Shown: positions 18,596-52,085 of the stretch, in pieces
Numbering within the stretch: the first letter of the stretch is position 1
How the letters are laid out: the number at the start of each line of letters is the position of its first letter
NCBI GenBank assembly: GCA_050258455.1
Contig: JBLMYT010000132.1
Span: forward strand, 82,349-146,348
DNA: 64,000 bases
Source of the DNA: Candidatus Omnitrophota bacterium
Lineage (GTDB): Bacteria > Acidobacteriota > Aminicenantia > UBA2199
Direction of reading: 5' to 3'
Position numbers and translations under genes: made by a program
Notes under the pieces: model-generated
The model's input: only the letters and a program-made list of their open reading frames with translations
Database searches by the model: none
Told to the model about the DNA's origin: nothing

Positions 18596-18627
18596 TAATT
18601 AATAATTAATAATCAAGGAGGCTGATT

Positions 18628-19662: not shown

Positions 19663-19691
19663 CTACATGAACGAAAAATAATCGAATCAAC

Positions 19692-21196: not shown

Positions 21197-22248
21197 CGAA
21201 GAATTCATCATTCAAAAATAAAAAAATAATGATTTCGGTTTTGCTGATTGTTCTTCTGGTTGGAATTGCGATAGGGATTGATTTTTATAAAAACGTATTC
21301 ACGCCTTATGCGGGTTATGGCAATCCCATCTATGTCGAGATACCCAAAGGCGCTTCCGCGGCTTCGATTGCCCGCATTCTCCATAAGAATAAAGTCATTA
21401 GCGGTTATTACCATTTCCGGATCTATTACCGGTTGTTTTTTGGAAATCTCACGTTCAAATCCGGTGAGTATCTGTTCGACCGTCCGATGACCATGCACGA
21501 CGTGATTGAAAAACTCCACGAAGGCAAAGTCGCCCTATTTAAACTCACGGTCCAGGAAGGATTATCCATCCCGGAGATTGCCGAACTGGCCGCGAGCCAC
21601 CCGTCGCTGCACATCTCATCCGACGCATTTATCCGGGAAGCGCGTTCGGGAGATTTGATCCGGGAACTCGATCCCACAGCTCCGGACCTGGAAGGCTACC
21701 TGTTTCCCGACACCTACATGCTGCGGCGCAATGTGACGGCGCAAGAACTGGTGGGCATGATGGTGGATCGATTCAAAGAAAACTTCACCAAACCTATGGA
21801 GCAGAGAAGCCATGAGATGGATTTTTCGATCCGAAAGGCCGTTACCATGGCGTCGCTCATTGAAAAAGAAACCGCTTCCTCGGAAGAGCGGTATTTAATT
21901 TCTTCGGTCTTTCACAACCGATTAAAAATTCAGATGGCGCTGGCCTGTGATCCCACGGTAATTTACGCACTGAAACGGGACAACGCCTATAAGGGGAAAT
22001 TGGGATGGGCCGCGCTTCGGTACGATTCCCCGTACAATACCCGGATATACAGAGGTCTCCCTCCCGGTCCCATTTGCAGTCCGGGCGTCGCCTCCATCAA
22101 AGCGGCACTCTATCCTCCCCAAACCAATTACCTTTACTTTGTGGCGGAGAATCCGCAAAAGCATTACTTTTCCGAAAGTCTGGACGAACATAACCGGGCT
22201 GTTCGAAAATTCATCATCAATCGTGGTAAAGAAGAGAAAAAGAAATAA
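21193..22248 (+). CDS. mltG: Endolytic murein transglycosylase MltG (YceG family)
   Basis: An N-terminal transmembrane helix and the YNTRIYRGLPPGPICSPG motif typical of YceG/MltG. Confidence 0.85.
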   Translation: MTKNSSFKNKKIMISVLLIVLLVGIAIGIDFYKNVFTPYAGYGNPIYVEIPKGASAASIARILHKNKVISGYYHFRIYYRLFFGNLTFKSGEYLFDRPMTMHDVIEKLHEGKVALFKLTVQEGLSIPEIAELAASHPSLHISSDAFIREARSGDLIRELDPTAPDLEGYLFPDTYMLRRNVTAQELVGMMVDRFKENFTKPMEQRSHEMDFSIRKAVTMASLIEKETASSEERYLISSVFHNRLKIQMALACDPTVIYALKRDNAYKGKLGWAALRYDSPYNTRIYRGLPPGPICSPGVASIKAALYPPQTNYLYFVAENPQKHYFSESLDEHNRAVRKFIINRGKEEKKK

Positions 22249-22252
22249 AATC

Positions 22253-23146
22253 ATGGATAAAATCATTCATCCGGATTCATTTTGGGAAAAAGTCAAAGCC
22301 TCCTGGCGCGGGTTCAAACAGATTCGCCGCATTGCCGAATTGGATCAACTGGATGAATTGAAATCCCAAAACCGCGCGCTTTCTGAAGAAATCAAACGAA
22401 TGGATGAGTTACGCCGCCGGGCCGAGCAGGAATGGGGCCCGCTCGATGGGTCGTGTTCTGCCCCATCCGATGATTTTTATTATGCCTTTGAAGAAACATT
22501 TCGCGGCAGCCGCGACATGATCAAATCCCGCTTGGCCGTTTACCTTCCTTATGTGGAACGCATTCGAAACGTATCGGCTCCCGGCGGTTTTCTGGATATT
22601 GGGTGCGGACGGGGCGAGTGGTTGGAGATATTAAACGAGAATCATATTCCGGCCCGGGGCATCGATCTCAATGTCCACATGATTCATGAGGCGCGTTCCC
22701 GAGGGCTTGAGGTCGAGCACGCCGATATTCTCGATTACCTTCGCCGGCTTCCCGAGACTTCGCTTTCCGGTATCAGCGGATTTCATGTAGTCGAACACCT
22801 GCCGCTTGCGGTTCTCATTGCCATGCTGGCAGAAATCCGGCGAACCCTGGCGCCCGGCGGGATTCTGATTCTCGAAACCCCCAATCCCGAAAATCTCCTG
22901 GTCGGTTCCTGCAACTTCTACGTGGACCCCACCCATCGGCGTCCGGTTCCGCCGCCGATCCTGGCCTTTATCATCTATCAGGCCGGTTTTCACGAATACG
23001 AGTGTGTGAGACTCGCCCCCCCCGATCTGCCGCTACCCAATATTGAAAATATAGCGGAAAACGCCCTCCAAACCCTTGCCCATCACATGACCGTCGGTCA
23101 GGATTATGCCCTCATTTCATTTAAGCCGCATTCGTTTGAATCATAA
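22253..23146 (+). CDS. Class I SAM-dependent methyltransferase with an N-terminal coiled-coil
   Basis: LDIGCGRGEWLEIL (SAM-binding motif I) ... ILILETPN. The start is moved to the ATG at 22253 (MDKIIHP), just after the mltG stop. Confidence 0.75.
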   Translation: MDKIIHPDSFWEKVKASWRGFKQIRRIAELDQLDELKSQNRALSEEIKRMDELRRRAEQEWGPLDGSCSAPSDDFYYAFEETFRGSRDMIKSRLAVYLPYVERIRNVSAPGGFLDIGCGRGEWLEILNENHIPARGIDLNVHMIHEARSRGLEVEHADILDYLRRLPETSLSGISGFHVVEHLPLAVLIAMLAEIRRTLAPGGILILETPNPENLLVGSCNFYVDPTHRRPVPPPILAFIIYQAGFHEYECVRLAPPDLPLPNIENIAENALQTLAHHMTVGQDYALISFKPHSFES

Positions 23147-23225
23147 TCATAACTATAATTATAGACTTTATAGACTTTATCCAGGAAATTGACAATTCGA
23201 TCGTCAATCGTTATAATCATTTCAT

Positions 23226-24476
23226 ATGAGCGGAAAAAAAGAAAAAAAAGATATGCCCTGGCTTCAAAAAATTAGCCTGTTAATTACAGCGGGTATTTTT
23301 ATTAATTTTCTATATGAAGTTTGGCTTGCCCTGATGACTCGGAACTGGGGAGCCCTGGCAACCCAATCCCTGGCCCTTCTCATTCTGGGTTTCATCACCT
23401 GGCTCTTTTGGAATGACATGCAGGAGATATTCAGAGATATCCAAAAATACAGGGAAAATGCCAGGGAACGGATCGAAAAAAACAAGGGAAAAATCAATAT
23501 CAAAGACGCCTTTTTATTTTCACTTCTTTGGAGTAACCAGATCTACAAGGATATCCCGGATGACCGCAAAGACTTTGTAAAAACATCATTCATTCTGATC
23601 GGGTTGGCCCTTTTTGTTTTTTACAAGAATTGGGACGGCCACTTGGTGTTGTTCTTCATCCTTGCCGCCCTGATTTTGGCAGGGGCCAACTTATTGATCT
23701 GGGTGGTCGGGAGCGAACGTCAGGAAAAAAACCGGATGGCCATCGAATTGGAAGCCGCCCGCAAGATGCAATTGAGCCTGATGCCGTCCAAGCCGCCGCA
23801 AATCAAGGGCTTTGATATTGCCGGATGCTGTATTCCGGCCAGCGATGTCGGGGGAGACCTCTTCGATTTTGTATGGATCGGTAAAAAATCGGACAAGTTG
23901 TGTATCCCGGTCGTGGACGTTTCCGGTAAAGGCATGGATGCGGCCCTGACTGCGGTGTACACCAGCGGCGCCCTGGTTTCCGAAACCCAGCACGAGGACG
24001 ATGTGGCCAAAGTGGCCCATAATTTAAATTCCGCCATTCTGTCGCGCAACAATCGCTCCCGTTTTGTCTCCCTATTAATGATTGCGCTGGATGTGTCTTC
24101 CCAAAAAATCGAATACGTCAATGCGGGGCAGACCAAACCCATTTTGCTTCGAAACGAGCAATTCGTAACGCTAAAAGGAACGGGGGCGCGTTTCCCGCTG
24201 GGGGTCATGAAAACCCCCCACTATCAAAGCGAAGGCCTTCAGCTCATGGCCGGGGATATCCTTCTCCTCTATACCGATGGCGTCACCGAAGCCATGAATG
24301 CCGAACTGGAAATGTTTGGCGAAAACCGGTTGCAAATGCTATTCCTCGATCTGGCCCGACAGAGGATACCGGCATCGGATATGGCCCTTCATATCAAAAA
24401 TGAAGTGATCCATTTCTCGGGACTGGATGAACAACAGGACGATTTAACCATTGTCGTCTTAAAGGTGTTATCATGA
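23226..24476 (+). CDS. Membrane-anchored PP2C-family serine phosphatase (SpoIIE/RsbU-like)
   Basis: N-terminal transmembrane helices; GGDLFDF, VDVSGKGMDAAL and LYTDGVTEA motifs. Confidence 0.85.
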   Translation: MSGKKEKKDMPWLQKISLLITAGIFINFLYEVWLALMTRNWGALATQSLALLILGFITWLFWNDMQEIFRDIQKYRENARERIEKNKGKINIKDAFLFSLLWSNQIYKDIPDDRKDFVKTSFILIGLALFVFYKNWDGHLVLFFILAALILAGANLLIWVVGSERQEKNRMAIELEAARKMQLSLMPSKPPQIKGFDIAGCCIPASDVGGDLFDFVWIGKKSDKLCIPVVDVSGKGMDAALTAVYTSGALVSETQHEDDVAKVAHNLNSAILSRNNRSRFVSLLMIALDVSSQKIEYVNAGQTKPILLRNEQFVTLKGTGARFPLGVMKTPHYQSEGLQLMAGDILLLYTDGVTEAMNAELEMFGENRLQMLFLDLARQRIPASDMALHIKNEVIHFSGLDEQQDDLTIVVLKVLS

Positions 24477-25114
24477 AAATTATTGACCTTACGCATACGT
24501 TGTGCAGCGGGATGCCTGTTTTTCCCGGCGATGAACCGCCGGTGATTTCGCGGGTGTCCACGATTGAACAAAACGGATATACCTCCCATCGCTTAACGCT
24601 TTCTACCCATACCGGGACTCATCTGGATGCGCCGGCGCACATGTTACCCCATGGCGCAGTATTGAATCGGCTTCCCATCGATTATTTTATCGGTAAGGGT
24701 GCGGTGATCGATTTAACCGGGTTAAACGCCTCGGAAATCCGCCTCTCCGACCTCAAACCCCATGAAGACCTTTTTAAACGTAGCGACTATATTCTGTTTC
24801 GAACCGGTTGGGATCGCTTTTGGGGAATTGATCGGTATTTCCGTGATTTTCCCGTTTTATCCCTGGAAGCAGCCATATGGATTCACAGCTTCCAATTGAA
24901 AGGCATTGGGCTGGATACCATTTCGGCCGATGAGGCGACATCGACCACGGTTCCGATTCACAAAACGCTTCTGGAACGCAGTGTGATCATTGAAAATTTA
25001 ACCAACCTGGGCGAACTGCCCTCAACCGGTTTTCTCTTTTCCTGCTTCCCGCTGAAACTGGAAAATGGCGAGGCGTCCCCCATCCGCGCAACAGCCCTGA
25101 TATTGGACGCGTGA
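24473..25114 (+). CDS. Cyclase family protein (kynurenine formamidase-like)
   Basis: HTGTHLDAPAHM (an HxGTHxDxPxH motif). Confidence 0.8.
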   Translation: MKIIDLTHTLCSGMPVFPGDEPPVISRVSTIEQNGYTSHRLTLSTHTGTHLDAPAHMLPHGAVLNRLPIDYFIGKGAVIDLTGLNASEIRLSDLKPHEDLFKRSDYILFRTGWDRFWGIDRYFRDFPVLSLEAAIWIHSFQLKGIGLDTISADEATSTTVPIHKTLLERSVIIENLTNLGELPSTGFLFSCFPLKLENGEASPIRATALILDA

Positions 25115-25163
25115 TGCCGCTGTAAGCTGGAAATGGTATTCGTTACTTTTTCTTGTTCCGATC

Positions 25164-26129
25164 ATGGAAAAATCGACATTCAAACTCGGCAATCTTAAGA
25201 TCCATTATCGCGCGATCCCCGCACCCATGGCCTCGATTACCGATATTGTGTTCCGTAAACTATTGGATGAAATCGGGTGCGTCGATTATATGATCACGGA
25301 GATGATTTCAGCCGAAGGTCTGCGCCGTCAGCAGACCAAAACCCTGGAGATTATGCGTTCCGATGGGTTTAAAACCCCGCAATTGATTCAATTGTTCGGA
25401 TGGGAGCCGTCCCAATTTGCCGATGCGGTGTCGTTTATTGAAAACGAAACCCCTTTTTCCGGGGTGGATCTCAACATGGGATGTCCGGCCGGAAAAGTGG
25501 TGCGAAAGGGAGGAGGAGCCGCCTTATTAAAAGATCCGCTAAAAGCAGCGTCCATTATTCGGGAAATCAAAACCCATACCCGGCTCCCCATCACGGTCAA
25601 GCTCCGATTGGGCTTTAATACCGTCAACATCCTGGACATGCTCCAGGCGATCGACGGCGAAGGCGCCGATGCGGTTACCGTGCACTTTCGGCTGCGTTCC
25701 GAAGGCTATTCGGGAAACGCCAATTGGGAGTATGCGCCCATCATCCGGGAACAGTTAAAAGAGAAAGCCTTATTTATCGGAAATGGCGACATCAAAACCG
25801 CCGCAGAAGCCAAAGAAAAATTAAACCGGGTCGACTGCGTCATGATCGGGCGCGGTGCGGTCATCAACCCGTTTATCTTTGCCGAAATGGCCGGAATCGA
25901 CCCCGCGGGTTTCGATACCAGGCGCATGGTGTTTCATGTCCTGGAGTTGATCGAGACCTATTACCATCCCATGTTTCATTTGTCCCGCTTTAAGGCTTAT
26001 GCCCGCTTTCTGTTCAGCAATCGCCAAAATTCAAAAAAAATCCGTCAGCATATTTATAGTTGCCATACGTTTGACGAAGTCAAACGCGTGTTACATACCT
26101 ATTTCGAGGTGAATCATGAGTCACTTTAA
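25164..26129 (+). CDS. dus: tRNA-dihydrouridine synthase
   Basis: PMASITD ... NMGCPAGKVVRKGGGAALL ... a TIM-barrel FMN enzyme pattern. Confidence 0.85.
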   Translation: MEKSTFKLGNLKIHYRAIPAPMASITDIVFRKLLDEIGCVDYMITEMISAEGLRRQQTKTLEIMRSDGFKTPQLIQLFGWEPSQFADAVSFIENETPFSGVDLNMGCPAGKVVRKGGGAALLKDPLKAASIIREIKTHTRLPITVKLRLGFNTVNILDMLQAIDGEGADAVTVHFRLRSEGYSGNANWEYAPIIREQLKEKALFIGNGDIKTAAEAKEKLNRVDCVMIGRGAVINPFIFAEMAGIDPAGFDTRRMVFHVLELIETYYHPMFHLSRFKAYARFLFSNRQNSKKIRQHIYSCHTFDEVKRVLHTYFEVNHESL

Positions 26130-26523
26130 AACCATCAGTGTCAAGTCATCCAGGGGGATTCAATTGATCGATATCACCCGGGATGTCACCGATTACATTG
26201 CCGAGCAAAAGGTTTCAAACGGTATCATCCTGGTTTATACTCCCCACACCACCGCCGCCGTAACGATCAATGAGAATGCCGATCCGGCAGTCACGGCAGA
26301 TATCGAGGCCTTCCTTCACCGTCATATCCCGCATGAACCGTACTTTAAACATGCGGAAGGCAATTCGCCGTCCCATATCATGTCCGGTTACTTTTCCGCT
26401 TCCGAAACCCTCATCATCGATAGCGGGAATCTGGTATTGGGGACCTGGCAGGGAATCTATTTCTGTGAATTCGACGGCCCAAGAAACCGAAAAGTCCATT
26501 TAAAAATCATGGAGGACAAATGA
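26116..26523 (+). CDS. yjbQ: YjbQ/UPF0047 family protein (secondary thiamine-phosphate synthase-like)
   Basis: A 135-aa protein; the central TPHTTAAVTINENADP motif and length match the family. Confidence 0.8.
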   Translation: MSHFKTISVKSSRGIQLIDITRDVTDYIAEQKVSNGIILVYTPHTTAAVTINENADPAVTADIEAFLHRHIPHEPYFKHAEGNSPSHIMSGYFSASETLIIDSGNLVLGTWQGIYFCEFDGPRNRKVHLKIMEDK

Positions 26524-29156
26524 AGAACCGAATCCTTACCCTGTTATTGGGGTTAAGCCTCTTATCCATGGCGGCACTTGCCTCCCCCAACGCGAACGAT
26601 CCCACCGCTTCCGCACCGGAAGCCCGCCTGCGTTCCTATCAAAAACACCTGCAAATGAAAGCGGATTCCCCGTTTAAGATCCTGAAGTGGAAAGAGTTGG
26701 GGCCTTATTACCTGGGAGGACGCATCACGGATATCGAAGGGTATGTCAATGACCCTCATAAATATTATATTGCTTCGGCTTCCGGCGGATTGTGGTTCAC
26801 GGAAAACAACGGAACCTCCTGGACGCCCTTATTTGATAACGAGTCGTCGATTACCATCGGCGATATTGCCGTATCGCAGAGCGATGAGAACTTGCTTTGG
26901 GTGGGAACCGGTGAGCCGAACGCGTCCCGCAGTTCATACGCCGGAACAGGGGTCTTTAAAAGCATCGATGGCGGTAAAACCTGGAAGAACATGGGACTGA
27001 CCGATACCCACCATATTGCCCGGATCCTCATTGACCCGGTAGACAACCATACGGTGTATGTGGCAGCCATCGGTCATCTGTATACCGACAACGACCAAAG
27101 AGGGCTCTTCAAAACCACGGATGGGGGGCTGACGTGGAAGAAAATATTGTCCATCAGTCCCAAAACCGGAATCATCGATGTGGTCATGCATCCCGAAAAC
27201 CCTCGGATTCTCTATGCCGCGTCCTGGCAAAAGGATCGAAAAGCGTGGAATTTTGAAGAAAGCGGCGAAGAAAGCGCAGTATTTAAATCCGTGGATGCGG
27301 GTCAAACCTGGACGAAGATCATGAATGGACTGCCGCAGGGAAAATACGTGGGGCGAATCGGATTGGCGATTGCGCCGTCCAAACCCAATGTGGTTTACGC
27401 CTATATCGACAACCAGGAACCCAAACCCGGAATTAAGGACGATAAGAGCAGCGACGCGAATAAGAATCTGTTTAATACGACCATTAAAGGCGGCGAAGTC
27501 TATCGCAGCGACAATGGCGGCGACACCTGGACCCGAACCCACACCCAATACCTGGACGGATTGGTTTATACGTACGGGTACTATTTCGGTCAGATCCGGG
27601 TGGCACCCGATAACGAAAACATTATTTACCTCCTCGGCGTCCCGCTCATGGTGTCGACCGACGGAGGCAAGACGGTTCGCGATATTTTCAGCGATGAAAC
27701 CCAGTATGATTATTACTGGCTTCATGCCGACCTGCATGCCTTGTGGATCCATCCGAAAAATCCCAAACAGATGTTGCTGGGAACCGACGGCGGCCTGAAT
27801 GTCTCGTATGATCGGGGAACCTCCTGGCAGCGGTTCGATAACCTTCCCCTGTCCCAGTGTTACACCATCCAGTTTGATAACCGCGAGCCCTACAATATCT
27901 ATTCGGGGTTACAGGATAATGGCGTCAACATGGGGCCTTCGGATTACGCCTTGCGAAAAATCAACTGCGATTGGAAACTCATCTTAGGGGGAGACGGCGC
28001 GTTTGTTCAGCCGCAACCCGATAACCCGGATACGGTTTATGCGGCCATTCAGTTCGGCAGTATATTCCGCCTCGAGATGAATACCAAAAAGCGAACGTAT
28101 ATCAAACCCCAATCCCCGGATAAGAATGTGCCCTATCGCTTCAACTGGCTTTCCCCCTTTTTGGTTTCCTCCCACAATCCCCTGACGCTGTACATGGGGG
28201 CCAATAAGGTCCTCAAGTCCGTGAATCGTGGGGAGAACTGGTGTGAGATTTCCCCGGATTTAACCAATGAAAAAAATACCGGCGGCGATGTCCCCTATGC
28301 CACGATTACGGCCCTGGACGAATCACCGCTTTCACCCGATTTACTGGTTGCGGGAACCGACGACGGTCATGTATGGGTTAAAAAAGACGCCCATTCGTTG
28401 TGGGAAAAGGTCACCAATGGGCTTCCCGCCAAATGGGTGTCCCGGGTCACGGCATCCCAATATAAAAAAGAGCGGATTTACCTCTCGTTAACCGGGTATC
28501 GGGAGGATGATTTCAGAACCTACGTGTATGTGTCCGAAAATTATGGGAAGACCTGGCGGGCTATTCAGGGAAACCTACCCGAAGAAGAACCGGTCAATGT
28601 GATTCGCGAAGACCCGGTCAATGAAAACGTGCTGTACCTGGGAACGGATCTGGGAATTTATGTGTCGCTGGACCGGGGAACCACCTGGCACGCACTCAAA
28701 AACAATCTTCCCACCAATGCGGTGTACGACCTGAGGGTTCACCCGACCAAAAAGGAATTGATCATCGGAACGCACGGTCGGGGGGTGTTTCTCCTTCCGA
28801 TCGACCACATCGAGCGATTAACTCCGGATGTGTTGAAAAAAAAGATGCATGTGTTTCCCATTACCGATGCGTGGCCATCCGCCGGTCCCTATTCACCCGG
28901 TCAGCCTCTGACGGTTTATTTTTATCGTTCCGAATCCACCCGATTAACGATTGAAATCACAGACAAATCCGGGAAAAAAATTCAAACCGCTCAAACCCTG
29001 GAAATAAACGCCGCCAATGGTTTGAACCGATGGGATTGGGATCTGATGCTGGATAAAGAAAAGAAAACGACACTTCAAAAAGGAGAATACACGATTACGC
29101 TCATTAACAATAACGACAAAATCGAAGGATCCTTTAAGGTTATCGATCCCCGGTAA
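26520..29156 (+). CDS. Secreted BNR/Asp-box repeat protein (sortilin/VPS10-like beta-propeller; often annotated as a BNR-repeat glycosyl hydrolase)
   Basis: A signal peptide followed by at least nine S-x-D-x-G-x-T-W boxes (SIDGGKTW, TTDGGLTW, SVDAGQTW, SDNGGDTW, STDGGKTV, SYDRGTSW, SVNRGENW, SENYGKTW, SLDRGTTW). Confidence 0.8.
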   Translation: MKNRILTLLLGLSLLSMAALASPNANDPTASAPEARLRSYQKHLQMKADSPFKILKWKELGPYYLGGRITDIEGYVNDPHKYYIASASGGLWFTENNGTSWTPLFDNESSITIGDIAVSQSDENLLWVGTGEPNASRSSYAGTGVFKSIDGGKTWKNMGLTDTHHIARILIDPVDNHTVYVAAIGHLYTDNDQRGLFKTTDGGLTWKKILSISPKTGIIDVVMHPENPRILYAASWQKDRKAWNFEESGEESAVFKSVDAGQTWTKIMNGLPQGKYVGRIGLAIAPSKPNVVYAYIDNQEPKPGIKDDKSSDANKNLFNTTIKGGEVYRSDNGGDTWTRTHTQYLDGLVYTYGYYFGQIRVAPDNENIIYLLGVPLMVSTDGGKTVRDIFSDETQYDYYWLHADLHALWIHPKNPKQMLLGTDGGLNVSYDRGTSWQRFDNLPLSQCYTIQFDNREPYNIYSGLQDNGVNMGPSDYALRKINCDWKLILGGDGAFVQPQPDNPDTVYAAIQFGSIFRLEMNTKKRTYIKPQSPDKNVPYRFNWLSPFLVSSHNPLTLYMGANKVLKSVNRGENWCEISPDLTNEKNTGGDVPYATITALDESPLSPDLLVAGTDDGHVWVKKDAHSLWEKVTNGLPAKWVSRVTASQYKKERIYLSLTGYREDDFRTYVYVSENYGKTWRAIQGNLPEEEPVNVIREDPVNENVLYLGTDLGIYVSLDRGTTWHALKNNLPTNAVYDLRVHPTKKELIIGTHGRGVFLLPIDHIERLTPDVLKKKMHVFPITDAWPSAGPYSPGQPLTVYFYRSESTRLTIEITDKSGKKIQTAQTLEINAANGLNRWDWDLMLDKEKKTTLQKGEYTITLINNNDKIEGSFKVIDPR

Positions 29157-30378: not shown

Positions 30379-32055
30379 ATGAAATTGAATAAAAAAGAGT
30401 TATTTAAATTCTTCTTTTCATTTCAGAAAAAATATCTCCCGATTGCGATCGTTACCGCGGTGCTTCTGCTTGTGAACGTTCTCTTGCAATTGCCGATGCC
30501 GCTGGTGACCAAATACCTGATCGATAAAATCGTCCCTGCCCGAGATTTTCATGCGCTCAACGTGTTGTGCCTGATTCTCCTGGGCATTATCCTCTTTCGA
30601 CAGGCCAGTGCTTATTTAATGCAGTATACGATATCCAAATATAAGGCGAATGTTCGTTTTGACCTTGAGCAGGCGCTTTACCTTCATATCCAGGATCTGC
30701 CTGTGTCTTATTTTACCCAAAAGGACACAGGCTACATCCTGTCTCGAATTTCAGAAATCTCCTCCATTGAATCCATCCTTGCCGATACGTTCCTCTACAT
30801 TCTCCGCGATACCATTACCATCATTGTCGGCGTGATACTGATTTTGGGGCTTCACTTTAAACTCGGCATGATCTCGATTGCGTTATTGCCCTTTTTTATC
30901 TTCACCTTAAAGAGTTTTCATCAAAAAATAAAAGTCATCAATCGGGAATTACGGGAAGAAAGCGCTCAGTATTACGGGAAGCTTGAAAAAAACCTCAATG
31001 CCATGGAGAAAATCAAGTCATGGGTCAAGGAAGAGATCGAGGGAAAACGCATCGCCCAACGGCTCTCGCGGGTCATCGGATTGGGCATGCGAGCGGAGTT
31101 AACCGGCGCCATGGCTGGGATCGCGTCTTCATTTGTCGGTATGATTGCCCCGTTTATTATTCTTTGGTACGGGATGTCGGAAATTATCAACGGAACGCTA
31201 ACCTTGGGTTCTTTTTTTGCCATCAATGCATTTACCGGGTATTTATACAATCCGGCCCGGCAATTAACCGAAACCGGCTTTTCGATTTCCCGGGCGCTGG
31301 CAGGGCTCGAACGCATCCATGAAATCTTCAATGAGAAAAAAGAAATGGAAGGCATCGAACCCATCGAGGGCATCGATTCCATCGAGTTTCAGAATGTGAC
31401 GTTCGGATATGAGGGCAATGATCCCGTATTGGAGAATTTAAACCTGACGATTAAACGGGGCGACAAAATTGCCCTGGTCGGGCAAAGCGGCGAAGGAAAA
31501 AGCACGGTCGTTAAGATGATTTTAAAATTCTATCTTCCGGCAGAGGGGAAAATTTTAATTTCCGGAAAAGATTCAAAAGATATCCAAATCAAAAGTTTGC
31601 GCCGACGCATTGCGTATATTCCTCAAAACCCCTTTATCCTCGAAGATGACGTGGAAGACATGTTCAAACAGCAGCACGCCCGAGAATTGCTTCAAAAATT
31701 TAGGTTAGAGAAATCCTCGATCGAAGCGTTGCACCATATCCATCAAAAGCAGTTTTCCGGAGGAGAAATCCAGAAGGTCGAATTACTCGAAGCGTTGCTC
31801 AAGGAAGCGGATGTACTCATCATCGACGAAGGAACCTCCAACATCGATTTTAATGCCGAGAAAATCGTCTTAAATGATTTGTTCGATAAATATAAAGAAA
31901 AAATTATCATATTTATCGCACACCGCTTAACATCCGTGGTGGATTTTAAACGGATTGTCGTGATCGAGAAGGGTAAAATAACCGAAGACGGGCCCCATGA
32001 TCGATTGATGAGCAATAAAGGCCGGTACTATTCCTTCTGGGGAGAAAAGGGATAA
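30379..32055 (+). CDS. ABC exporter with fused transmembrane and ATP-binding domains
   Basis: Six predicted transmembrane helices at the N-terminus, a Walker A motif GQSGEGKST, an ABC signature FSGGEIQKV and a Walker B motif LIIDE. Confidence 0.85.
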   Translation: MKLNKKELFKFFFSFQKKYLPIAIVTAVLLLVNVLLQLPMPLVTKYLIDKIVPARDFHALNVLCLILLGIILFRQASAYLMQYTISKYKANVRFDLEQALYLHIQDLPVSYFTQKDTGYILSRISEISSIESILADTFLYILRDTITIIVGVILILGLHFKLGMISIALLPFFIFTLKSFHQKIKVINRELREESAQYYGKLEKNLNAMEKIKSWVKEEIEGKRIAQRLSRVIGLGMRAELTGAMAGIASSFVGMIAPFIILWYGMSEIINGTLTLGSFFAINAFTGYLYNPARQLTETGFSISRALAGLERIHEIFNEKKEMEGIEPIEGIDSIEFQNVTFGYEGNDPVLENLNLTIKRGDKIALVGQSGEGKSTVVKMILKFYLPAEGKILISGKDSKDIQIKSLRRRIAYIPQNPFILEDDVEDMFKQQHARELLQKFRLEKSSIEALHHIHQKQFSGGEIQKVELLEALLKEADVLIIDEGTSNIDFNAEKIVLNDLFDKYKEKIIIFIAHRLTSVVDFKRIVVIEKGKITEDGPHDRLMSNKGRYYSFWGEKG

Positions 32056-32131: not shown

Positions 32132-32150
32132 TTCAAAAGTTACTTTTGAA
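32132..32150. terminator. Perfect 9-bp inverted repeat (ttcaaaagt-t-acttttgaa) between convergent genes, overlapping the stop codon of the XRE gene
   Basis: Seen directly in the sequence. It has no strong T-tract, so it is a weak candidate. Confidence 0.3.
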
Positions 32151-32619
32151 CTTTTGCCCTTTCGGCCCTTTTCTTTTTCTCGCGATTTTCCCTTTCCTGC
32201 TGGTTTAAAAAATCCTTTACTTCGTCTTTAAAAAGCGTTTTGCATTCCATTAGCTTTGCAAGGACAACCTGTTCGACTACGGGAATCTGCATCAGGTTCA
32301 TTAATTCATTGTATTGCTCAAATTTAGGATCCCCATATTGAACGTTGGGATAACTAATGGTAGAGGCACCCACGGCTGAAGGATGGGTCCGCATATACAT
32401 TTCGCCTTCCCCGGTGACCAGCCAATTAATATTTAGCCCATACTTTTCATAAAAGTATTGTAAATAATTAATCTTGGGAAAGGTCGTCCCATGTTCAATA
32501 TTCGTAATCGTTGATTGATGAACTTTAAGCTCAGCAGCAAGAAGATGCTGCGCCTTTTTCCTGTCAATGCGGAACGTTTTGAACCGCTGACCGACGTCTT
32601 GTTTCAGTTGTTTCAGCAT
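32140..32619 (-). CDS. XRE-family helix-turn-helix transcriptional regulator
   Basis: An HTH motif QHLLAAELKVHQSTITNIEHG, plus a YGLNINWLVTGEGEM motif shared with the neighbouring paralog. Confidence 0.8.
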   Translation of the reverse strand: MLKQLKQDVGQRFKTFRIDRKKAQHLLAAELKVHQSTITNIEHGTTFPKINYLQYFYEKYGLNINWLVTGEGEMYMRTHPSAVGASTISYPNVQYGDPKFEQYNELMNLMQIPVVEQVVLAKLMECKTLFKDEVKDFLNQQERENREKKKRAERAKVQK

Positions 32620-33023: not shown

Positions 33024-33470
33024 TTATTTTTTTTTTAAAGCTTTTCGAATATTCTCATCAACGATATCTTTATTCTTGTGAATATATTCCTGAAAAAAAC
33101 CTAAAACTGCATATTTGGCCACCGGCGCGTTTTCCAAGTACCATAAAAGTTGATTGTAGTCGTCTTCGTACGTATCGGTGGAGATTTCTTCGTCGCCTTT
33201 GGGATAATCGGCATCCCATTTTTCAATCATCTTTCCCTTACCCGAGAGCCACCAGTTGATATTCAGTCCATACAATTTAAAGAGGGCTAGCATTAAAATA
33301 GCGGACGGCTTGGTTTTGCCTGCCTCTACCTCGGTAAGCGTATCCCGCGAAAGAGATGTTTGATCTGCAATCTCCGGGATTGTTAAATTATGAGATTTTC
33401 GAAATAATTTAAATCGCTTACCGATATCTTCGATATTAAAATCAAACTTTACCAGGCACTTTGTTTCCAT
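33024..33470 (-). CDS. XRE-family helix-turn-helix transcriptional regulator (paralog of 32140-32619)
   Basis: An HTH motif and the shared YGLNINWWLSGKGKM motif. Confidence 0.75.
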   Translation of the reverse strand: METKCLVKFDFNIEDIGKRFKLFRKSHNLTIPEIADQTSLSRDTLTEVEAGKTKPSAILMLALFKLYGLNINWWLSGKGKMIEKWDADYPKGDEEISTDTYEDDYNQLLWYLENAPVAKYAVLGFFQEYIHKNKDIVDENIRKALKKK

Positions 33471-33862: not shown

Positions 33863-34015
33863 ACGTTAAAATAACATCAAAATGCTAAAGTGGCAGAGAC
33901 CCATTGAAAAACCGATTAAATGTCTCCCCCCGATCGGGTGAGATTAAATAAAGCACGTCAAGAGGGAGAGCATGACATGCTCTCCCTCTTATTACTTTAT
34001 TGTTTTAATGTGATT

Positions 34016-34984
34016 TTATTCCAATCGTTGCCCGATCCCTTTTTCACTGGCCCTGGCCAGGTAATAGGCGCCCAATGCCATATCAAAAACCGCCATGCCC
34101 ATCGGATTAAACATAATGGGGGCATCCGGTAAAATATTCTCCAACCATTTTCCCGATACCACATCGATGATGGATTTAACATGCGCTTCTTGTAATCCCT
34201 TGTGAAGATGCAGCATTTCGATATCCGTCTTTTCCCGGCAAATTTCTTCCCAATTATCGACGATGATGCTGTCTTTGACGTAATCAAACACATCGGTCTT
34301 AAAATCGCGAAGAGAGATATTTAATTGAAGCGAACCCTTCTTGGGGGCTTTATCGATATAGGGGGCACTGGAAACCGTTGCCGTGATAAACACATCCGCA
34401 TCCGTATAAGCCTCTTCCCAATTTTTGGCGATAACGATTTTTTCGTTTGGGGCAAAGGCATACGAGCCGGGATCGATCGGTCGCAAGTCATATAAATAGA
34501 TCGTCTCGATTTGTGGCCCCAATAGGTCGAGACACATCCGTAAATGATATTGTCCAATCGGTCCCCAACCGATAATGGCCAATTTGATGTTTCGAAGGGG
34601 GCGAACGTTGTCAAAATACCGGATCATTAAACCGGTGACGGCGGCTGTACGCAAAATGCTTAAAAGCGCGGTATTGATAATGGCCACAGGTTTACCCGTA
34701 TCTGCCTCATTCAGAACCACGACGCTGTGGGCCCGCGGAATACGCCGCTCAATATTATCGGGGAAACTGGCAATCCACTTGATGCCGGCAACATTGAAAT
34801 GGCCACCGATAAACGCAGGCATCGCAATGATCCGATTCTTTAAATTCCGATACCGTAAGTACGGTTTTATGGGTTGGGCAAAATCGTCTCGGTCCAAACA
34901 TAACACCGCTGATTCGATCACATCAATCAATTTTTCCCATTCGATTCCGACTTGGTGAATACTCGTTTCATTTAAATAAAGCAT
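34016..34984 (-). CDS. sbnB: Ornithine cyclodeaminase/mu-crystallin family NAD-dependent enzyme, SbnB-like (2,3-diaminopropionate biosynthesis)
   Basis: A Rossmann motif AIIGWGPIGQYH; its length and family match, and it lies directly downstream of an SbnA-like gene. Confidence 0.75.
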   Translation of the reverse strand: MLYLNETSIHQVGIEWEKLIDVIESAVLCLDRDDFAQPIKPYLRYRNLKNRIIAMPAFIGGHFNVAGIKWIASFPDNIERRIPRAHSVVVLNEADTGKPVAIINTALLSILRTAAVTGLMIRYFDNVRPLRNIKLAIIGWGPIGQYHLRMCLDLLGPQIETIYLYDLRPIDPGSYAFAPNEKIVIAKNWEEAYTDADVFITATVSSAPYIDKAPKKGSLQLNISLRDFKTDVFDYVKDSIIVDNWEEICREKTDIEMLHLHKGLQEAHVKSIIDVVSGKWLENILPDAPIMFNPMGMAVFDMALGAYYLARASEKGIGQRLE

Positions 34985-35002
34985 CCCTGATTCTCCTTCA
35001 TT

Positions 35003-35974
35003 TCATTTGGATTCATTTTTGGTTTTTCTGGTTTTGAAATCCTGATACCAGGCTTCATCGTAAACCGTATTTCCATACCGTTCACCCCTATCGGGGAATA
35101 TCGTCACCACCCGGGCTTGTGTGGATACCGGGTGGGTTTCAAAATACCGCTTAATTCCCCCGTACACCGATCCGGATGATCCGCCCGCAAAGATATTGTG
35201 ACGTTTCAACAATTCATGACACATATCGATGGTGGAAATCTCATCCATCATGACGACATCGTCGATTTTTGCTATTTTTAAAATTTCCGGGACCATGCTG
35301 GAACCAATTCCGGGAATAAACCTCTTTTGGGGCGGATACCCGAAGATGACCGAGCCGATAATATCCACGGCAATGACTTTGCTCTCCGGAAACGCCTCCT
35401 TGACCCGCCGAGATACGCCGGTAATCGTCCCCCCGGAACTGATCCCCAGGAACAGGTAATCCAGTCGGTCGCAGGTCTCCAAAATTTCAGATCCTAGGGT
35501 TTGATAGTAAGCCTCGGCATTATAAGGGTTGCCGTATTGATTGACCCAATACGAATTTTTGATTTCGCTGACCAATTCCTTGACTTTCTTGATTCGGTTG
35601 AGGAGATATCCCCCATTCTCATCGGGAACCTCGACTTTAATGATGGTTGCCCCGAAGGACCGGATGAGCATCTCATTCATCGGGGAAATATGAGGGTCCA
35701 CCACGCAAATGAATTTCAATCCCTTGTACCGGCAATACGCAGATAGAGCGATTCCGAAATTCCCCGAGGAGGATTCGATGATTGTCGTATCGTGATTGAT
35801 TTCTCCCCTGGAAAGGATTTTATCGAGTAAATAAGCGGCCGCTCGATCCTTGACACTTCCCGTCGGGTTAAGAAATTCGAGTTTGGCGTACACATCGATA
35901 TGTGCTAACTCATTGAGAGGGATATAAACCATCGGTGTATGTCCGACTGTTTGTAAAATATGATGATGTACCAT
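35003..35974 (-). CDS. sbnA: PLP-dependent cysteine synthase-family enzyme, SbnA-like (N-(2-amino-2-carboxyethyl)-L-glutamate synthase)
   Basis: A PLP-lysine motif LNPTGSVKDRAAAYLL, a glycine-rich loop GISSGGTITG, and pairing with sbnB. Confidence 0.75.
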   Translation of the reverse strand: MVHHHILQTVGHTPMVYIPLNELAHIDVYAKLEFLNPTGSVKDRAAAYLLDKILSRGEINHDTTIIESSSGNFGIALSAYCRYKGLKFICVVDPHISPMNEMLIRSFGATIIKVEVPDENGGYLLNRIKKVKELVSEIKNSYWVNQYGNPYNAEAYYQTLGSEILETCDRLDYLFLGISSGGTITGVSRRVKEAFPESKVIAVDIIGSVIFGYPPQKRFIPGIGSSMVPEILKIAKIDDVVMMDEISTIDMCHELLKRHNIFAGGSSGSVYGGIKRYFETHPVSTQARVVTIFPDRGERYGNTVYDEAWYQDFKTRKTKNESK

Positions 35975-36168: not shown

Positions 36169-37386
36169 TTGCGTCTTATGAAAAAAATAATAGCACTTAT
36201 TGATATAATTTATTCAGAGATTCCAAAGATGATTAAAAAACATTACCCATTGAGCGCTTGTCTATTGGTATTTTTGTTTTTCTTACCCCAAATGATGGTG
36301 GGTGAGGAAATATTTGATGTTCCTGAAATTTTGAAGGACAATGTGATGTTTTGGAAGAAAATTTATACGGAAGTATCGTTGACCGAAGGGGTCATCCACG
36401 ATAATGAATACCCGATGATCATTTACCGATTGATCAGTCTGGCGAATAGAACGGGAAAAACGCGTAAAGGTTATCTGCAAGAAAACATGGCGGCAGTCGA
36501 AAGGATATTGGAGACCATGAATAACAAAAGCCCGGACCAATGGACCGGCATCGAATGCCAAATTCGAGACTTATTTAAACAGTACGCGAATCTGGACGCC
36601 TTAAAAGATGCCGCGTCTCGGCTTCGGTTTCAATTGGGACAAAAGGAACGATTCAAGGAAGGATTGGAGCGGGCGGCCGCTTACATGCCCTTCATCATGG
36701 CAACCTTCGAGAAAATGAATATCCCCAAACGCGTGGCTTACCTCCCCCATGTGGAATCCTCGTTTAATATCGAGGCGCGTTCGCGGGTGGGGGCGGCCGG
36801 GATGTGGCAGTTTATGCGGGGAACCGGGAAACTGTTCCATCTTAAAATGGATTCGAAAATCGATGAACGCCATGACCCCATTCGATCGACCCTTGCCGCG
36901 GCTCAATTGTTAATCAAAAATTACGAAAATCTAAAATCCTGGCCATTGGCGATTACCGCTTACAATCACGGCCCCGCAAGTATTAAACGCGCGGTACTGG
37001 AAACCGGATCCCGGAACCTCGGCGTGATTATCGAGAAATACAAAAACCGCCGCTTCAAATTTGCGTCGAAAAATTTTTACGGGTGTTTCATCGCTGCCAG
37101 CGAAATTGCCTCCCAACCGGAAAAATATTTTTCCAACCTTAACCTTCATCCCCAATTGAAATTCAATGAAATCCAAATCAGAAATTCCCTGGCTCCTCAA
37201 AAACTCGCGAAGCAATTGGGGGTTTCTCAAGATAACCTCAAAAAACTCAATCCCGCCCTTCGTCCCGTTCTTTTTAAACGTCAGCTTCCGATTCCAACAC
37301 CCTATGTCTTGCGAATCCCCACGTCAAGGGCAACCGAAAAAGCTGCATTTTCCGCCGCAGACAGCGGGGCGGATAAAGATAACTAA
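36169..37386 (+). CDS. Membrane-bound lytic murein transglycosylase (MltD-like, SLT domain)
   Basis: VESSFNIEARSRVGAAGMWQFM ... AYNHGP. Confidence 0.8.
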   Translation: MRLMKKIIALIDIIYSEIPKMIKKHYPLSACLLVFLFFLPQMMVGEEIFDVPEILKDNVMFWKKIYTEVSLTEGVIHDNEYPMIIYRLISLANRTGKTRKGYLQENMAAVERILETMNNKSPDQWTGIECQIRDLFKQYANLDALKDAASRLRFQLGQKERFKEGLERAAAYMPFIMATFEKMNIPKRVAYLPHVESSFNIEARSRVGAAGMWQFMRGTGKLFHLKMDSKIDERHDPIRSTLAAAQLLIKNYENLKSWPLAITAYNHGPASIKRAVLETGSRNLGVIIEKYKNRRFKFASKNFYGCFIAASEIASQPEKYFSNLNLHPQLKFNEIQIRNSLAPQKLAKQLGVSQDNLKKLNPALRPVLFKRQLPIPTPYVLRIPTSRATEKAAFSAADSGADKDN

Positions 37387-37452: not shown

Positions 37453-37528
37453 TGGCGCGCCTGGCAAGGATCGAACCTGCGACCTTTGGTTCCGGAGACC
37501 AACGCTCTATCCTCTGAGCTACAGGCGC
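37453..37528 (-). tRNA. tRNA-Arg (anticodon CCG)
   Basis: The reverse complement GCGCCTGTAGCTCAGAGGATAGAGCGTTGGTCTCCGGAACCAAAGGTCGCAGGTTCGATCCTTGCCAGGCGCGCCA folds into a cloverleaf. It has a 7-bp acceptor stem, GCTC/GAGC D-stem, TTGGT/ACCAA anticodon stem around the loop CTCCGGA, a TTCGATC T-loop and an encoded CCA. Confidence 0.9.
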
Positions 37529-37573: not shown

Positions 37574-38500
37574 GTGTTTTTGGAGGAGGGCTCCGAATTG
37601 AATTCAAAAAAATTTGCCGTATATGCCGGTATCCTATTGTCCATGATGTTTTGGGGGTTATCTTATCCCTGGATCATGATCGTGTATCGATGTTACCATC
37701 CGATTACCACCGTGTTTCTCCGATTATTGGTTGCGTCCGTCCTGATGACCGTTTTTTCCCGGTTATCCAAAAAAATACAGCGAATCGAACGCGGAGACCT
37801 CCGCTATTTCATTCTGTTGGCCATCGTTCAGCCTTTCCTTTATTTTTTGTGTGAAAGTTATGGGCTTAAATCGGTGTCTCCAACGCCTGCGGCCGTGATT
37901 ATTTCAACCATTCCTCTGTTTACGCCGATTGCGGCTTTTTATTTTTTCAAGGAAAAATTAATGGCGGTGAATATCGTCGGTATGGCCGTTGCCTTTGGGG
38001 GTGTCCTCCTGGTGGTCATTAAAGAGGACTTCACCCTTTCGGCTTCTCCTGTGGGCTTCATCCTTCTGTCGATCGCCGTGGCGATGGGGGTGACGTACAC
38101 GACGCTTTTGAAAAAAATATCCTTCAAATACAATGCGATTACGATTGTGACCTATCAAAATACGTTTGGTATCGTGGGCTTTCTTCCCCTTTTCTTCTGG
38201 GTCGACTGGAATCATTTTTTAAATGCGGTTCCGACCCGAAGCGTCCTCATCTCTCTCGGGCTATTGGCGGTTCTATCGTCATCCCTGGCTTACGTTCTTT
38301 ACGCTTACTCGGTTAAGCAACTGGGGGTTTCTCGCGCCAGCATGTTTTCCAATGTGATGCCCGTGTTTACCGCCGTGTTTGCCTGGATGATCCTGGATGA
38401 AAAAATCACCCTGCGAATGGGTCTGGGAATTCTGGCCGTCGTTGGCGGATTATTCATCTCTCAAACGAAAACCCCTTTACAGAAAAATAAGACCAAATAA
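37574..38500 (+). CDS. DMT-superfamily (EamA-like) permease
   Basis: Ten predicted transmembrane helices in two EamA-like halves. Confidence 0.75.
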   Translation: MFLEEGSELNSKKFAVYAGILLSMMFWGLSYPWIMIVYRCYHPITTVFLRLLVASVLMTVFSRLSKKIQRIERGDLRYFILLAIVQPFLYFLCESYGLKSVSPTPAAVIISTIPLFTPIAAFYFFKEKLMAVNIVGMAVAFGGVLLVVIKEDFTLSASPVGFILLSIAVAMGVTYTTLLKKISFKYNAITIVTYQNTFGIVGFLPLFFWVDWNHFLNAVPTRSVLISLGLLAVLSSSLAYVLYAYSVKQLGVSRASMFSNVMPVFTAVFAWMILDEKITLRMGLGILAVVGGLFISQTKTPLQKNKTK

Positions 38501-45987: not shown

Positions 45988-47877
45988 TCATGCGACAAAA
46001 TCGCCGATTCCAAATTGATCCAGAAAGATACCGAAGGTAATGACCGTGATGAGTAAATCGCTGTCAAACGGTAAATTGAGGCGGAATCCTTCCTGGCTGT
46101 ACTGTTTTTTTAACCGTTCCACGCTGTCGGGGTTAAAATAACCCTGCTTTTTAATGCGTTCATAGGAAAGCAGGTCATTGATGTATTCAATATTGCGATT
46201 CAATAAGTAAGGACTTCCCGGCGCCACAAACCCGAATTTCTCCCGCTTGATGATTTCCGGGGGAACGAGGCCGGAAGCCATGCGCTTGACGATGTACTTT
46301 TCATCGAAGTCCTTTAACTTCAAATCCGGGGGAACGGTGGCTGCAAATTCCACGAGGTTTTTATCGAGAAACGGATAGCGGGCTTCGACCGAATTGGCCA
46401 TGGCCTGCCGGTCCCCGTGATCGGAGATCAAATGATCGGCCAACCGAAGTTTATAATCCAGGTAAGACCGCTTATGGATGTTGTCCCTGTTTTTTAGCCG
46501 TTCGTTGTTCACGACGAAATGGTTGATGCAGTGAATGGCATCAAAGTCTGCGTTCACCTGTTCGGAGTACAAATCCCGTTTGACTGCGGAAAAGGCGTAT
46601 TTGAATTTCTCATAGAAGAAGTTTTCATCGCCCCATAACCGCCGACGGATGGCGTCTTCAAACGGGGTTTCGGGCGTGACGGTTTTCTTTTGCATCTGCC
46701 GCATTTTATCGAATCGGTATCCGACATAACCGGCAAAAAATTCGTCCGACCCTTCACCAGTGAGAACCACCTTGATGTTGTGGCTTCGAACCGATTCGGA
46801 TAACGCAAAAGACGCGGTATTGTAGGTTTCTTTGATGGCGCATTCGCAGTGCCGGATGGCCTGGGGTAAGCGGGAACTGATATCCCCGAACCGAAACAGG
46901 ATTTCATGATGATCGGAATTCACGGATTTTGCCATGAGCCGCTGAAATTTGGATTCGGATATCTCTTTTTCCAAAAAATCGATCGCAAAGGAATGCCGTC
47001 GATTCTCGGGGGTGAGTCGATGCGTCAAGGCAGTGATGACCGACGAATCCAATCCCCCACTGATATAAATGCCCACCGGAACATCGGACCGAAGCCGTAA
47101 CCGCACGGATTCGGTAATCAATTCCTCGAGCCGTTTGACGTAATACGCGTCATCGTGTCGGTAATCGGCGGCATGAATTTCCGGATAAATGACGTCCCAG
47201 TATTCGACATCCCGAATCTCGTCGCGATCGCCGTCCGGTTTCACGAGTAAATAATGACCGTTTTCCAGACTCTTAATGTGTTTAAACATGGTTCGGGGGC
47301 TGACCAGTCCGGGAAAGGTAAACACCTGGTCCAGGCCCACGAGGTCGGCTTCGCGCTTAACGCCCGGATATTCCAGAATGGCTTTGATTTCCGAACCGAA
47401 GATAAACAGTCCGTCGACCAGGGTATAGAAAAAGGGAAGCACGCCGAAATGGTCTCGGGCGCAGAATAACTGCTGTTTTTTAAAATCGAAAATGGCAAAG
47501 GAAAATTGGGCGTTGAGTTGATTTAAAAACTCCGGGCCCGATTCTTCGTAAAGGTGAACCAGAACTTCGACGTCAGTCCGGGTTTTAAAGGTGTGCCCGC
47601 GCTGAATCAGATCTTCTCGGAGCTCGATGTAATTGAATATTTCACCGTTGCAGATGAGCATGATGGAGCCATCTTCGTTAAACAGGGGTTGCATGCCCCC
47701 TTCCAGGTCGATGATGCTGAGCCTGGAAAAACCGAACCCCAGGTTTCCGTGGTTGGCGATAACCACATTTTCGCCGTCGGGTCCACGGTGATAGAGTTGG
47801 GCGGTCATGCGTCGGATCACGGCCTCATCGACCCGGCCCCGCTGTCTTAAATCAAACATTCCGCAAATTCCACACAT
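45988..47877 (-). CDS. asnB: Asparagine synthetase B-family glutamine amidotransferase
   Basis: The start is set at MCGICGM, since an Ntn amidotransferase requires Cys at position 2. The PP-loop motif SGGLDSS is present. Confidence 0.85.
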   Translation of the reverse strand: MCGICGMFDLRQRGRVDEAVIRRMTAQLYHRGPDGENVVIANHGNLGFGFSRLSIIDLEGGMQPLFNEDGSIMLICNGEIFNYIELREDLIQRGHTFKTRTDVEVLVHLYEESGPEFLNQLNAQFSFAIFDFKKQQLFCARDHFGVLPFFYTLVDGLFIFGSEIKAILEYPGVKREADLVGLDQVFTFPGLVSPRTMFKHIKSLENGHYLLVKPDGDRDEIRDVEYWDVIYPEIHAADYRHDDAYYVKRLEELITESVRLRLRSDVPVGIYISGGLDSSVITALTHRLTPENRRHSFAIDFLEKEISESKFQRLMAKSVNSDHHEILFRFGDISSRLPQAIRHCECAIKETYNTASFALSESVRSHNIKVVLTGEGSDEFFAGYVGYRFDKMRQMQKKTVTPETPFEDAIRRRLWGDENFFYEKFKYAFSAVKRDLYSEQVNADFDAIHCINHFVVNNERLKNRDNIHKRSYLDYKLRLADHLISDHGDRQAMANSVEARYPFLDKNLVEFAATVPPDLKLKDFDEKYIVKRMASGLVPPEIIKREKFGFVAPGSPYLLNRNIEYINDLLSYERIKKQGYFNPDSVERLKKQYSQEGFRLNLPFDSDLLITVITFGIFLDQFGIGDFVA

Positions 47878-47973
47878 GGTTGATCCCTCGATGTTGAATT
47901 TAATATAATAGCGTATCACACATTTCGGAATTTTCAATACCCAAAATAAAAAAGTTTTTGGCCCCACCTTTTT

Positions 47974-51761: not shown

Positions 51762-52041
51762 ATTTCCTCCTTAATAAATTTATGACTCAATCACTTTCTC
51801 TCTCTTCATTCCCCAAAAAATATCTTTAAAAAATTCGATCCATGTTTCATCGATCCGGGATAAGAATAATACAATTACCAAAATTTTTGTTCTATTTTTA
51901 TAGAAATGGAAACCTTTTTTTTTGAGGTTCGACAGGAAAGAATTTTTGGATATCAATTTTTATAAAATGATATTTTGGGGTTAAAATGTCTGGGGCAAAT
52001 TCATGGGAATCTTCAATTCAAAATAAGTGGATTTTAATCCA

Positions 52042-52085
52042 CCGCGGAACAGATAAACCCCCGGGGTCATGCTCACCCCGGGAGC
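52042..52085. terminator. Rho-independent terminator hairpin
   Basis: cccggggt-catgctc-accccggg, then a T/A-rich run. Confidence 0.55.

Follow-up and report, generated by a model that had tools for sequence, protein, structure and literature searches.

A gene pair predicted to make L-2,3-diaminopropionate that probably stands apart from a neighbouring peptide synthetase gene in a genome labelled Candidatus Omnitrophota

A 64,000-nt stretch of DNA (hereafter the window) from a metagenome-assembled genome (MAG) labelled Candidatus Omnitrophota bacterium (assembly GCA_050258455.1, contig JBLMYT010000132.1, positions 82,349 to 146,348 of the forward strand) was analysed for a pair of genes resembling sbnA and sbnB and for a nonribosomal peptide synthetase (NRPS) gene at its start. 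A first-pass annotation had described a cysteine-synthase-family enzyme dependent on pyridoxal phosphate (PLP), with an SVKDR motif, directly upstream of an NAD enzyme of the ornithine cyclodeaminase (OCD) family. It had read the two as an SbnA/SbnB-like pair and candidate synthase of L-2,3-diaminopropionate (L-Dap) supplying the NRPS. Both open reading frames were found as described, with sbnA immediately upstream of sbnB on the same strand and an intergenic gap of 18 nt. The pair and the elements bounding it are:

35003..35974, minus strand: sbnA-like gene, family of PLP-dependent N-(2-amino-2-carboxyethyl)-L-glutamate (ACEGA) synthases, 323 aa
34016..34984, minus strand: sbnB-like gene, family of NAD-dependent ACEGA dehydrogenases with the OCD/mu-crystallin fold, 322 aa
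36053..36081, minus strand: promoter-like site (TTGAAA, 17-nt spacer, TG-TATAGT), matching the consensus at 10/12 positions with an extended -10
33960..33990, unstranded: hairpin with a 14-bp stem between the convergent sbnB and ytxH, starting 26 nt past the sbnB stop

Pfam assigned the sbnA product to PALP (224 bits) and the sbnB product to OCD_Mu_crystall (108 bits). Against the NCBIfam equivalog TIGR03945, SbnA scored 404.4 bits, above the cutoff of 349.95, while the models for cysKM (214.9 bits), cysK (203.7 bits; cutoff 351) and cysM (163.8 bits) all stayed far under their own cutoffs (344–394), as did the NCBIfam model for cystathionine beta-synthase (CBS), which scored within 164–215 bits. 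SbnB reached 325.3 bits against the equivalog TIGR03944, 1.6 bits short of its cutoff of 326.9. That alignment was full length (residues 1–322 to positions 1–325 of the 327 in the model), the next-best family gave 96.9 bits, and the ornithine cyclodeaminase model NF005762 gave 39 bits against a cutoff of 350. The top PDB match of SbnA was Staphylococcus aureus SbnA (5d84, 298 bits), followed by CmnB at 178 bits and by CBS and CysK structures at 173 bits or less; that of SbnB was S. aureus SbnB (4m54, 160 bits), with the others, whether OCD, alanine dehydrogenase or Pyr2C reductase, at 66 bits or less.

Pairwise alignment showed SbnA to be 45.5% identical to its S. aureus counterpart over 312 aligned residues. 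In the S. aureus enzyme, K47 holds PLP, and R132, Y152 and S185 select O-phospho-L-serine (PMC12414870). K47, R132, Y152, S185 and Q151 correspond to K42, R127, Y147, S179 and Q146 of the window protein, in which K42 lies within the lysine motif GSVKDR (residues 39–44) and R127, Y147 and S179 are invariant across 26 close homologues. The active-site loop 72–78 was likewise kept (ESSSGNF versus ESTSGNL in S. aureus), and the Rossmann GxGxxG motif of SbnB was present as GWGPIG (residues 139–144), aligned with GCGLIG of S. aureus SbnB. That both proteins are of the SbnA/SbnB type, and neither CysK nor a proline-forming OCD, thus appears well supported. Placement with CysK or OCD, which the first-pass annotation had named as the outcome that would speak against its proposal, did not occur, and the TIGR03945 score, the TIGR03944 score just under its cutoff and the best PDB matches speak for the pair as a candidate L-Dap synthase. 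The pair is a member of a known family, already correctly named by the NCBI pipeline, and an identical protein in a MAG record at NCBI carries the name SbnA. We predict with considerable confidence that the pair is an L-Dap synthase.

In S. aureus, SbnA makes ACEGA from O-phosphoserine and glutamate, and SbnB cleaves it in an NAD+-dependent reaction into L-Dap and 2-oxoglutarate (PMC10906522). If this mechanism carries over to the window pair by family membership, SbnA, with PLP on K42, would eliminate phosphate from O-phospho-L-serine and add the amine of L-glutamate to give ACEGA, which SbnB with NAD+ would then oxidise and hydrolyse to L-Dap and 2-oxoglutarate.

The promoter-like site sits 80–110 nt upstream of sbnA; it is a consensus match only, and such sites were no more numerous in the region than in shuffled sequence. 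At the other end of the pair, the hairpin folded as minus-strand RNA at -31.9 kcal/mol (z = -8.3 versus shuffles) and is probably a bidirectional terminator that closes the sbnAB operon and is shared with ytxH. Upstream of sbnA, no Rfam match to a riboswitch or leader was found. Because of the 18-nt gap, the promoter-like site of its own and the terminator hairpin, sbnAB is read here as a self-contained two-gene operon and a separate transcription unit. The GC content at third codon positions (GC3) was 0.55 for sbnA and 0.52 for sbnB, in a housekeeping range of 0.49–0.63 (era, 0.54).

The gene proposed as the consumer of L-Dap lies at the start of the window:

17205..<1, minus strand: NRPS, with its ATG at 17205 and running off the window start, >5,735 aa

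Pfam and domain mapping gave the order partial condensation (C) domain, C, C, adenylation (A) domain A1, thiolation (T) domain, C, A2, T, C, A3, T, epimerisation (E) domain, C, A4, T and thioesterase (TE) domain, the last being cut by the window edge. To read the ten Stachelhaus positions, each of the four A domains was aligned with the Phe-A segment of GrsA; the numbering is sound because this reference is identical to PDB 1AMU residues 185–531. The resulting codes were DFWNIGMVHK (A1), DVTNFAIVYK (A2, whose domain lies at 8596–10116, minus strand), DSTITAEVNK (A3) and DILQLGMIWK (A4). The A3 code agreed at 8/10 positions with the classical Tyr code, which is reportedly DGTITAEVAK, and is therefore Tyr-like. 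No paper containing the A2 or A3 code was found in the searchable literature. The nearest solved structures to A2 were gramicidin and tyrocidine-type domains, and SulM A3 was absent among the PDB matches of A2 at E <= 1e-60. DFWNIGMVHK is among the Thr/Dhb signatures, and DILQLGMIWK is a Gly code (PMC12283262).

The SulM A3 domain has been solved with Dap bound, and three modes of binding a side-chain amine have been defined for A domains: a Glu at code position 3 (mode 1), acidic residues at positions 4 and 9 (mode 2), and Asp-Asp at positions 8 and 9 (mode 3, with the SulA3 code DVWEMNADDK) (PMC12042044). An acidic residue at the positions of modes 1–3 was carried by 0/4 of the A-domain codes in the window NRPS, so that none of the four matches the Dap-activating code for which the first-pass annotation had suggested looking. 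As a positive control, we applied the same extraction to 80 genomic loci carrying SbnA homologues (such loci are numbered with the prefix L below), which yielded 117 A domains. Dap-type codes were recovered in 13 NRPS loci directly beside sbnAB: SulA3-like codes in nine of them (DIWE(M/V/L)T(A/C/V)DDK, plus IAWEGTCDDK and a gapped DIWEG-ADTK) and DPExxGxVDK codes in four. The gapped code, from L036, is an alignment-gapped reading in which positions 8 and 9 are Asp-Thr and not Asp-Asp. The extraction therefore does detect Dap-type domains where sbnAB sits in an NRPS cluster.

The NRPS also differed from the pair in composition, with a GC3 of 0.44 versus 0.49–0.63 for housekeeping genes. Moreover, a comparison of its N-terminal third (1,290 aa) with 5.8 billion proteins turned up no close orthologue; the top matches were 40–48% identical and sit in unrelated clusters without PALP or OCD genes. 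The GC3 difference and the missing close orthologue together suggest that the NRPS and sbnAB appear to have different histories.

Two further features of the NRPS and its upstream region were observed. Its C domains before A1 lie at residues 25–281 (partial), 364–792 and 849–1273, so that residues 1–1290 (13336–17205, minus strand) comprise a truncated C domain, of which the C-terminal half only is present, followed by two complete tandem C-type domains. No carrier domain lies between the tandem domains, and the first A domain comes only after both. Their active-site motifs read HHIISDA and HHIVADK, with DHIISDG in the C domain that follows module 1. The tandem arrangement was common to only two database proteins, over ~70% of the region and at 40–48% identity. 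In addition, three copies of an 83-nt direct repeat, 63–71% identical to the reference copy, fill the intergenic stretch (17379–17689) that separates the start of the NRPS from the divergently oriented metallophosphoesterase gene and may form a regulatory array.

From the NRPS start (17205) to the sbnB stop (34016), 16.8 kb and 14 ORFs intervene. A plus-strand run (17852–29156) includes genes for a metallophosphoesterase, ddl, ruvX, yceG/mltG, a methyltransferase, a PP2C phosphatase, a cyclase, dus, UPF0047 and a BNR protein. Beyond it lie an NHL-like protein gene, ytxH and the following genes:

30379-32055: ABC exporter, a generic MsbA/HlyB-like half-transporter that scored below every equivalog cutoff
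32140-32619 and 33024-33470: two XRE regulators with an atypically low GC3 of 0.42-0.45

The exporter, the two regulators and the NRPS are all real, as the first-pass annotation had reported. The exporter and regulators were considered as the glue of a cluster and rejected, the exporter being generic, and the XRE genes being low in GC3 and forming separate units beyond ytxH. An AsnB-like gene (45988-47967, minus strand) was also rejected as a cluster component: it passes the generic model for glutamine-hydrolysing asparagine synthase (467 bits; cutoff 267), lies 10 kb from the pair across an ABC-2 operon, and was treated as housekeeping. AsnB-like homologues, 61–72% identical, occur inside the sbnAB/NRPS loci L008, L012 and L013.

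In the window, sbnAB is neither embedded in nor directly flanked by NRPS genes as the pairs of the Sul, Vio and Cmn clusters are, and its own promoter-like site and terminator, together with the opposite-strand genes in between, argue against co-transcription with the NRPS. The proposed interleaved cluster of ~36 kb is consequently not supported: the intervening genes are housekeeping genes, and the NRPS differs in codon composition and is without a close orthologue. The scanned window proteins contained no IucA/IucC domain, and no Dap-coded A domain, NRPS-independent siderophore (NIS) synthetase or ATP-grasp consumer was found in the window.

These features set the pair apart from its characterised counterparts. 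S. aureus SbnA/SbnB (staphyloferrin B; PDB 5D84, 4M54) are alike in families, in the gene order sbnA-sbnB and in tight spacing, but there the pair heads the nine-gene sbn operon, whereas the window pair is stand-alone, with no IucA/IucC (SbnC/E/F), SbnG/H/I or siderophore transport genes nearby. SulH/SulG (sulfazecin) and CmnB/CmnK and VioB/VioK (tuberactinomycins) are homologous pairs, CmnK being detectable for the window SbnB at 53 bits (PDB), and an NRPS is likewise present in the window. Those pairs lie inside their clusters, with a dedicated A domain that holds Dap via acidic residues (PMC12042044), whereas the window NRPS is 16.8 kb off and has no such residues.

On its other side, sbnA adjoins a set of genes that recurs in related genomes:

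36169..37386, plus strand: MltD-like SLT lytic transglycosylase gene, divergent from sbnA; Pfam SLT, 405 aa, without LysM repeats
37453..37528, minus strand: tRNA-Arg(CCG), found by ARAGORN and Rfam, in the conserved syntenic block
37574..38500, plus strand: EamA-family transporter gene (Pfam EamA), a syntenic neighbour

A neighbour-joining (NJ) tree was built from 87 SbnA sequences with S. aureus as the root, and in it the window SbnA grouped with those of L002, L007, L010, L084, L085/86, L089 and L090. All of these relatives divergently adjoin an SLT-LysM gene, and L093 has the same layout. SbnA is 67–72% identical to its relatives in the SLT clade. The SLT gene is 56–66% identical to the SLT gene beside sbnAB in L002, L007 and L010; it is common to L002 and L010 (63–66%), while L003 and L005 lack it. 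The window protein, at 405 aa without LysM, differs in length from its relatives, which have 636–691 aa with LysM.

The right flank was collinear with L002, L003 and L005, with identities of 80% for the ABC ATPase, 79% for the ABC-2 permease, 57% for ABC_transp_aux and 44% for DUF4340, and the EamA protein is 50–61% identical to that of the same three loci. The tRNA-Arg(CCG) between EamA and SLT also occurs in L002 and L084, two loci that have the whole block in common with the window (ABC-2 operon, DUF4340, EamA, tRNA-Arg, SLT, sbnA and sbnB). A genomic island at this tRNA was considered and rejected, as the end of the tRNA was not found directly repeated and the tRNA stands at the equivalent place in relatives; the latter therefore points to conserved synteny and not to an integration scar.

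Downstream of sbnB, the loci diverge: folC-like, speE and speD genes follow in L007, L089, L090 and L093, a TPR protein gene in L084, an inositol phosphatase gene with a toxin-antitoxin pair in L085, and ytxH, the two XRE regulators and the ABC exporter in the window. The SLT–sbnAB divergent adjacency was thus seen to persist in L002, L007, L010, L084, L085, L089, L090 and L093 while the outer flanks differ. In the flanks available for the clade relatives, L093 included, which reach 0–10 kb beyond sbnB, no NRPS was found, and among the clade members an NRPS within 17 kb is known for the window only. In a sister clade (L003, L005, L087 and L088), the ABC-2/EamA block is kept, and AraC, thioesterase and AraC genes stand in place of SLT.

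The Era GTPase of the window is 67–73% identical to its nearest named relatives, from Aminicenantes and Acidobacteriota. Since the identity of SbnA to its relatives is about that of Era, it fits vertical inheritance at a housekeeping-like rate and not a mobile cluster gene. These comparisons fit vertical inheritance of the block that holds sbnAB, which the window has in common with Aminicenantes-type MAGs. As a separate observation, Era (54782–55675) and the syntenic ABC-2/EamA/SLT/sbnAB block (67–80% identity) point to Aminicenantes/Acidobacteriota, and the Candidatus Omnitrophota label or the binning of the source MAG may be wrong.

Taken together, we infer, and consider it rather likely, that sbnAB is a stand-alone, lineage-conserved Dap operon that forms no contiguous cluster with the NRPS, its consumer lying outside the window or being of an unrecognised kind. 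An assignment of the pair to primary metabolism, as an ordinary CysK/CysM with a proline-forming ornithine cyclodeaminase unrelated to Dap, is highly improbable. Both proteins do belong to those superfamilies, and the JGI automatic annotation labels many homologues 'cysteine synthase A', but the cysK, cysM and cysKM models gave 164–215 bits against cutoffs of 344–394 where SbnA gave 404 against 350, NF005762 fell far short of its own cutoff, SbnA and SbnB were the best structural matches by wide margins, and the residues selecting O-phosphoserine are kept. A consumer elsewhere in the genome, whether a Dap-type NRPS or hybrid with a polyketide synthase (NRPS-PKS), an NIS synthetase for a siderophore of the staphyloferrin B kind, or a ligase of the ATP-grasp type, has close to an even chance of being the explanation, and it overlaps with the stand-alone reading, which leaves the consumer open. 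NRPSs with DIWExTADDK or DPExxGxVDK codes, IucA/IucC proteins and Ddl-like ATP-grasp ligases were all seen beside SbnA homologues, and the database holds another NRPS, P0142, that comes from an 'Omnitrophota' MAG, but no such gene lies in the 64-kb window itself.

Supply of L-Dap to the NRPS at 1–17205, as the first-pass annotation had proposed, seems unlikely. Such supply would act in trans, with A2 as the likeliest point of entry and a Thr-Dap-(D-aromatic)-Gly peptide as product, exported perhaps by the ABC exporter at 30379–32055. The NRPS does share the 64-kb window with sbnAB, both it and the 29–34 kb region are lower in GC than the housekeeping block, and the A2 code carries the polar residues T239, N278 and Y331. 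The amine-anchoring positions of all three modes are nevertheless without an acidic residue, the pair is a separate operon with a terminator and 14 unrelated genes in between, its GC3 is host-like where that of the NRPS is not, and the sbnAB block recurs in relatives whose readable flanks show no NRPS. Several points do weigh against the stand-alone reading. Only the 64-kb window of the MAG was inspected, and the flanks of relatives are readable to 10 kb only, so that an NRPS at ~17 kb would lie beyond them. In the sister clade, an NRPS-PKS of ~2,600 aa directly follows sbnB at the equivalent syntenic position, and NRPS A or C domains were found within 10 kb in 53/80 of the sbnAB loci, usually 1–3 genes from sbnA; NRPS supply is therefore the commonest use of the pair. 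The A2 code DVTNFAIVYK has no assigned substrate, and the best match of A2 among the 117 locus A domains, at 46–48% identity, is that of the sister-clade NRPS-PKS beside sbnAB in L003 and L005. This last match, at 439 bits, is only slightly higher than the 409 bits of A2 to its own sister domains, and A1, A3 and A4 also match the L003/L005 domain, so that the similarity of A2 is read as a lineage effect.

The survey of SbnA homologues revealed further contexts of the pair. The SulA3-like codes came from L016, L028, L032, L036, L042, L043, L047, L061 and L076, in Paenibacillus, Bacteroidota, Bacillota and other genomes; codes of the form DIWExT(A/C/V)DDK match the 'mode 3' Dap pocket of SulA3, which had been reported from no known biosynthetic gene cluster besides that of sulfazecin (PMC12042044). 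IucA/IucC NIS synthetases stand beside SbnA homologues in the Pseudoalteromonas loci L077–L081 (including L080). A Ddl-like ATP-grasp ligase follows sbnAB in seven Patescibacteria loci (L015, L017, L019, L022, L044, L051 and L060) and in one of Leptospiraceae (L020). In the Patescibacteria loci, genes for three more proteins come after it: one of 448 aa without a Pfam match, a C39-like peptidase and a class-III aminotransferase. This conserved non-NRPS module may use Dap. In L091 and L092, SbnA homologues (~70% identity) end NRPS/PKS clusters with B12-radical SAM genes and have no adjacent SbnB; a ~340-aa protein without a Pfam match lies upstream of SbnA and may be an alternative partner enzyme.

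Elsewhere in the window, a 1,084-aa protein (60403–63657, plus strand) combines a TIR domain at its N terminus with an AAA_16/NB-ARC-like NTPase and long TPR arrays, an architecture similar to that of STAND-type proteins in defence or signalling. A gene at 47974–51066 (minus strand), directly upstream of the asparagine synthase gene at 45988-47967, encodes 1,030 aa that include a protein-glutaminase-like domain (Gln_deamidase_2). Three closely spaced OMP_b-brl outer-membrane beta-barrel paralogues of 170–188 aa lie at 51249–53219 (minus strand), the last two overlapping by 13 nt.

For annotation, these results mean that the names SbnA and SbnB can be given to the pair with good confidence, that Dap in the NRPS product is not to be predicted from proximity alone, and that no 36-kb cluster should be drawn. 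For the wider family, SulA3-type mode 3 codes, common in sbnAB-linked NRPS clusters of Paenibacillus and Bacteroidota MAGs, offer a marker for mining Dap-containing peptides. A bolder reading, which we regard as improbable, is that L-Dap synthesis is a vertically inherited, cluster-independent trait of Aminicenantes-type bacteria, kept beside the MltD-like transglycosylase while the flanks reshuffle. If true, Dap would have a conserved physiological function, whether in the cell envelope or in some other primary-like capacity, and would be neither a siderophore component nor an NRPS building block. Should Aminicenantes-type genomes prove to be without an NRPS or siderophore partner, an unrecognised use of L-Dap would be indicated.

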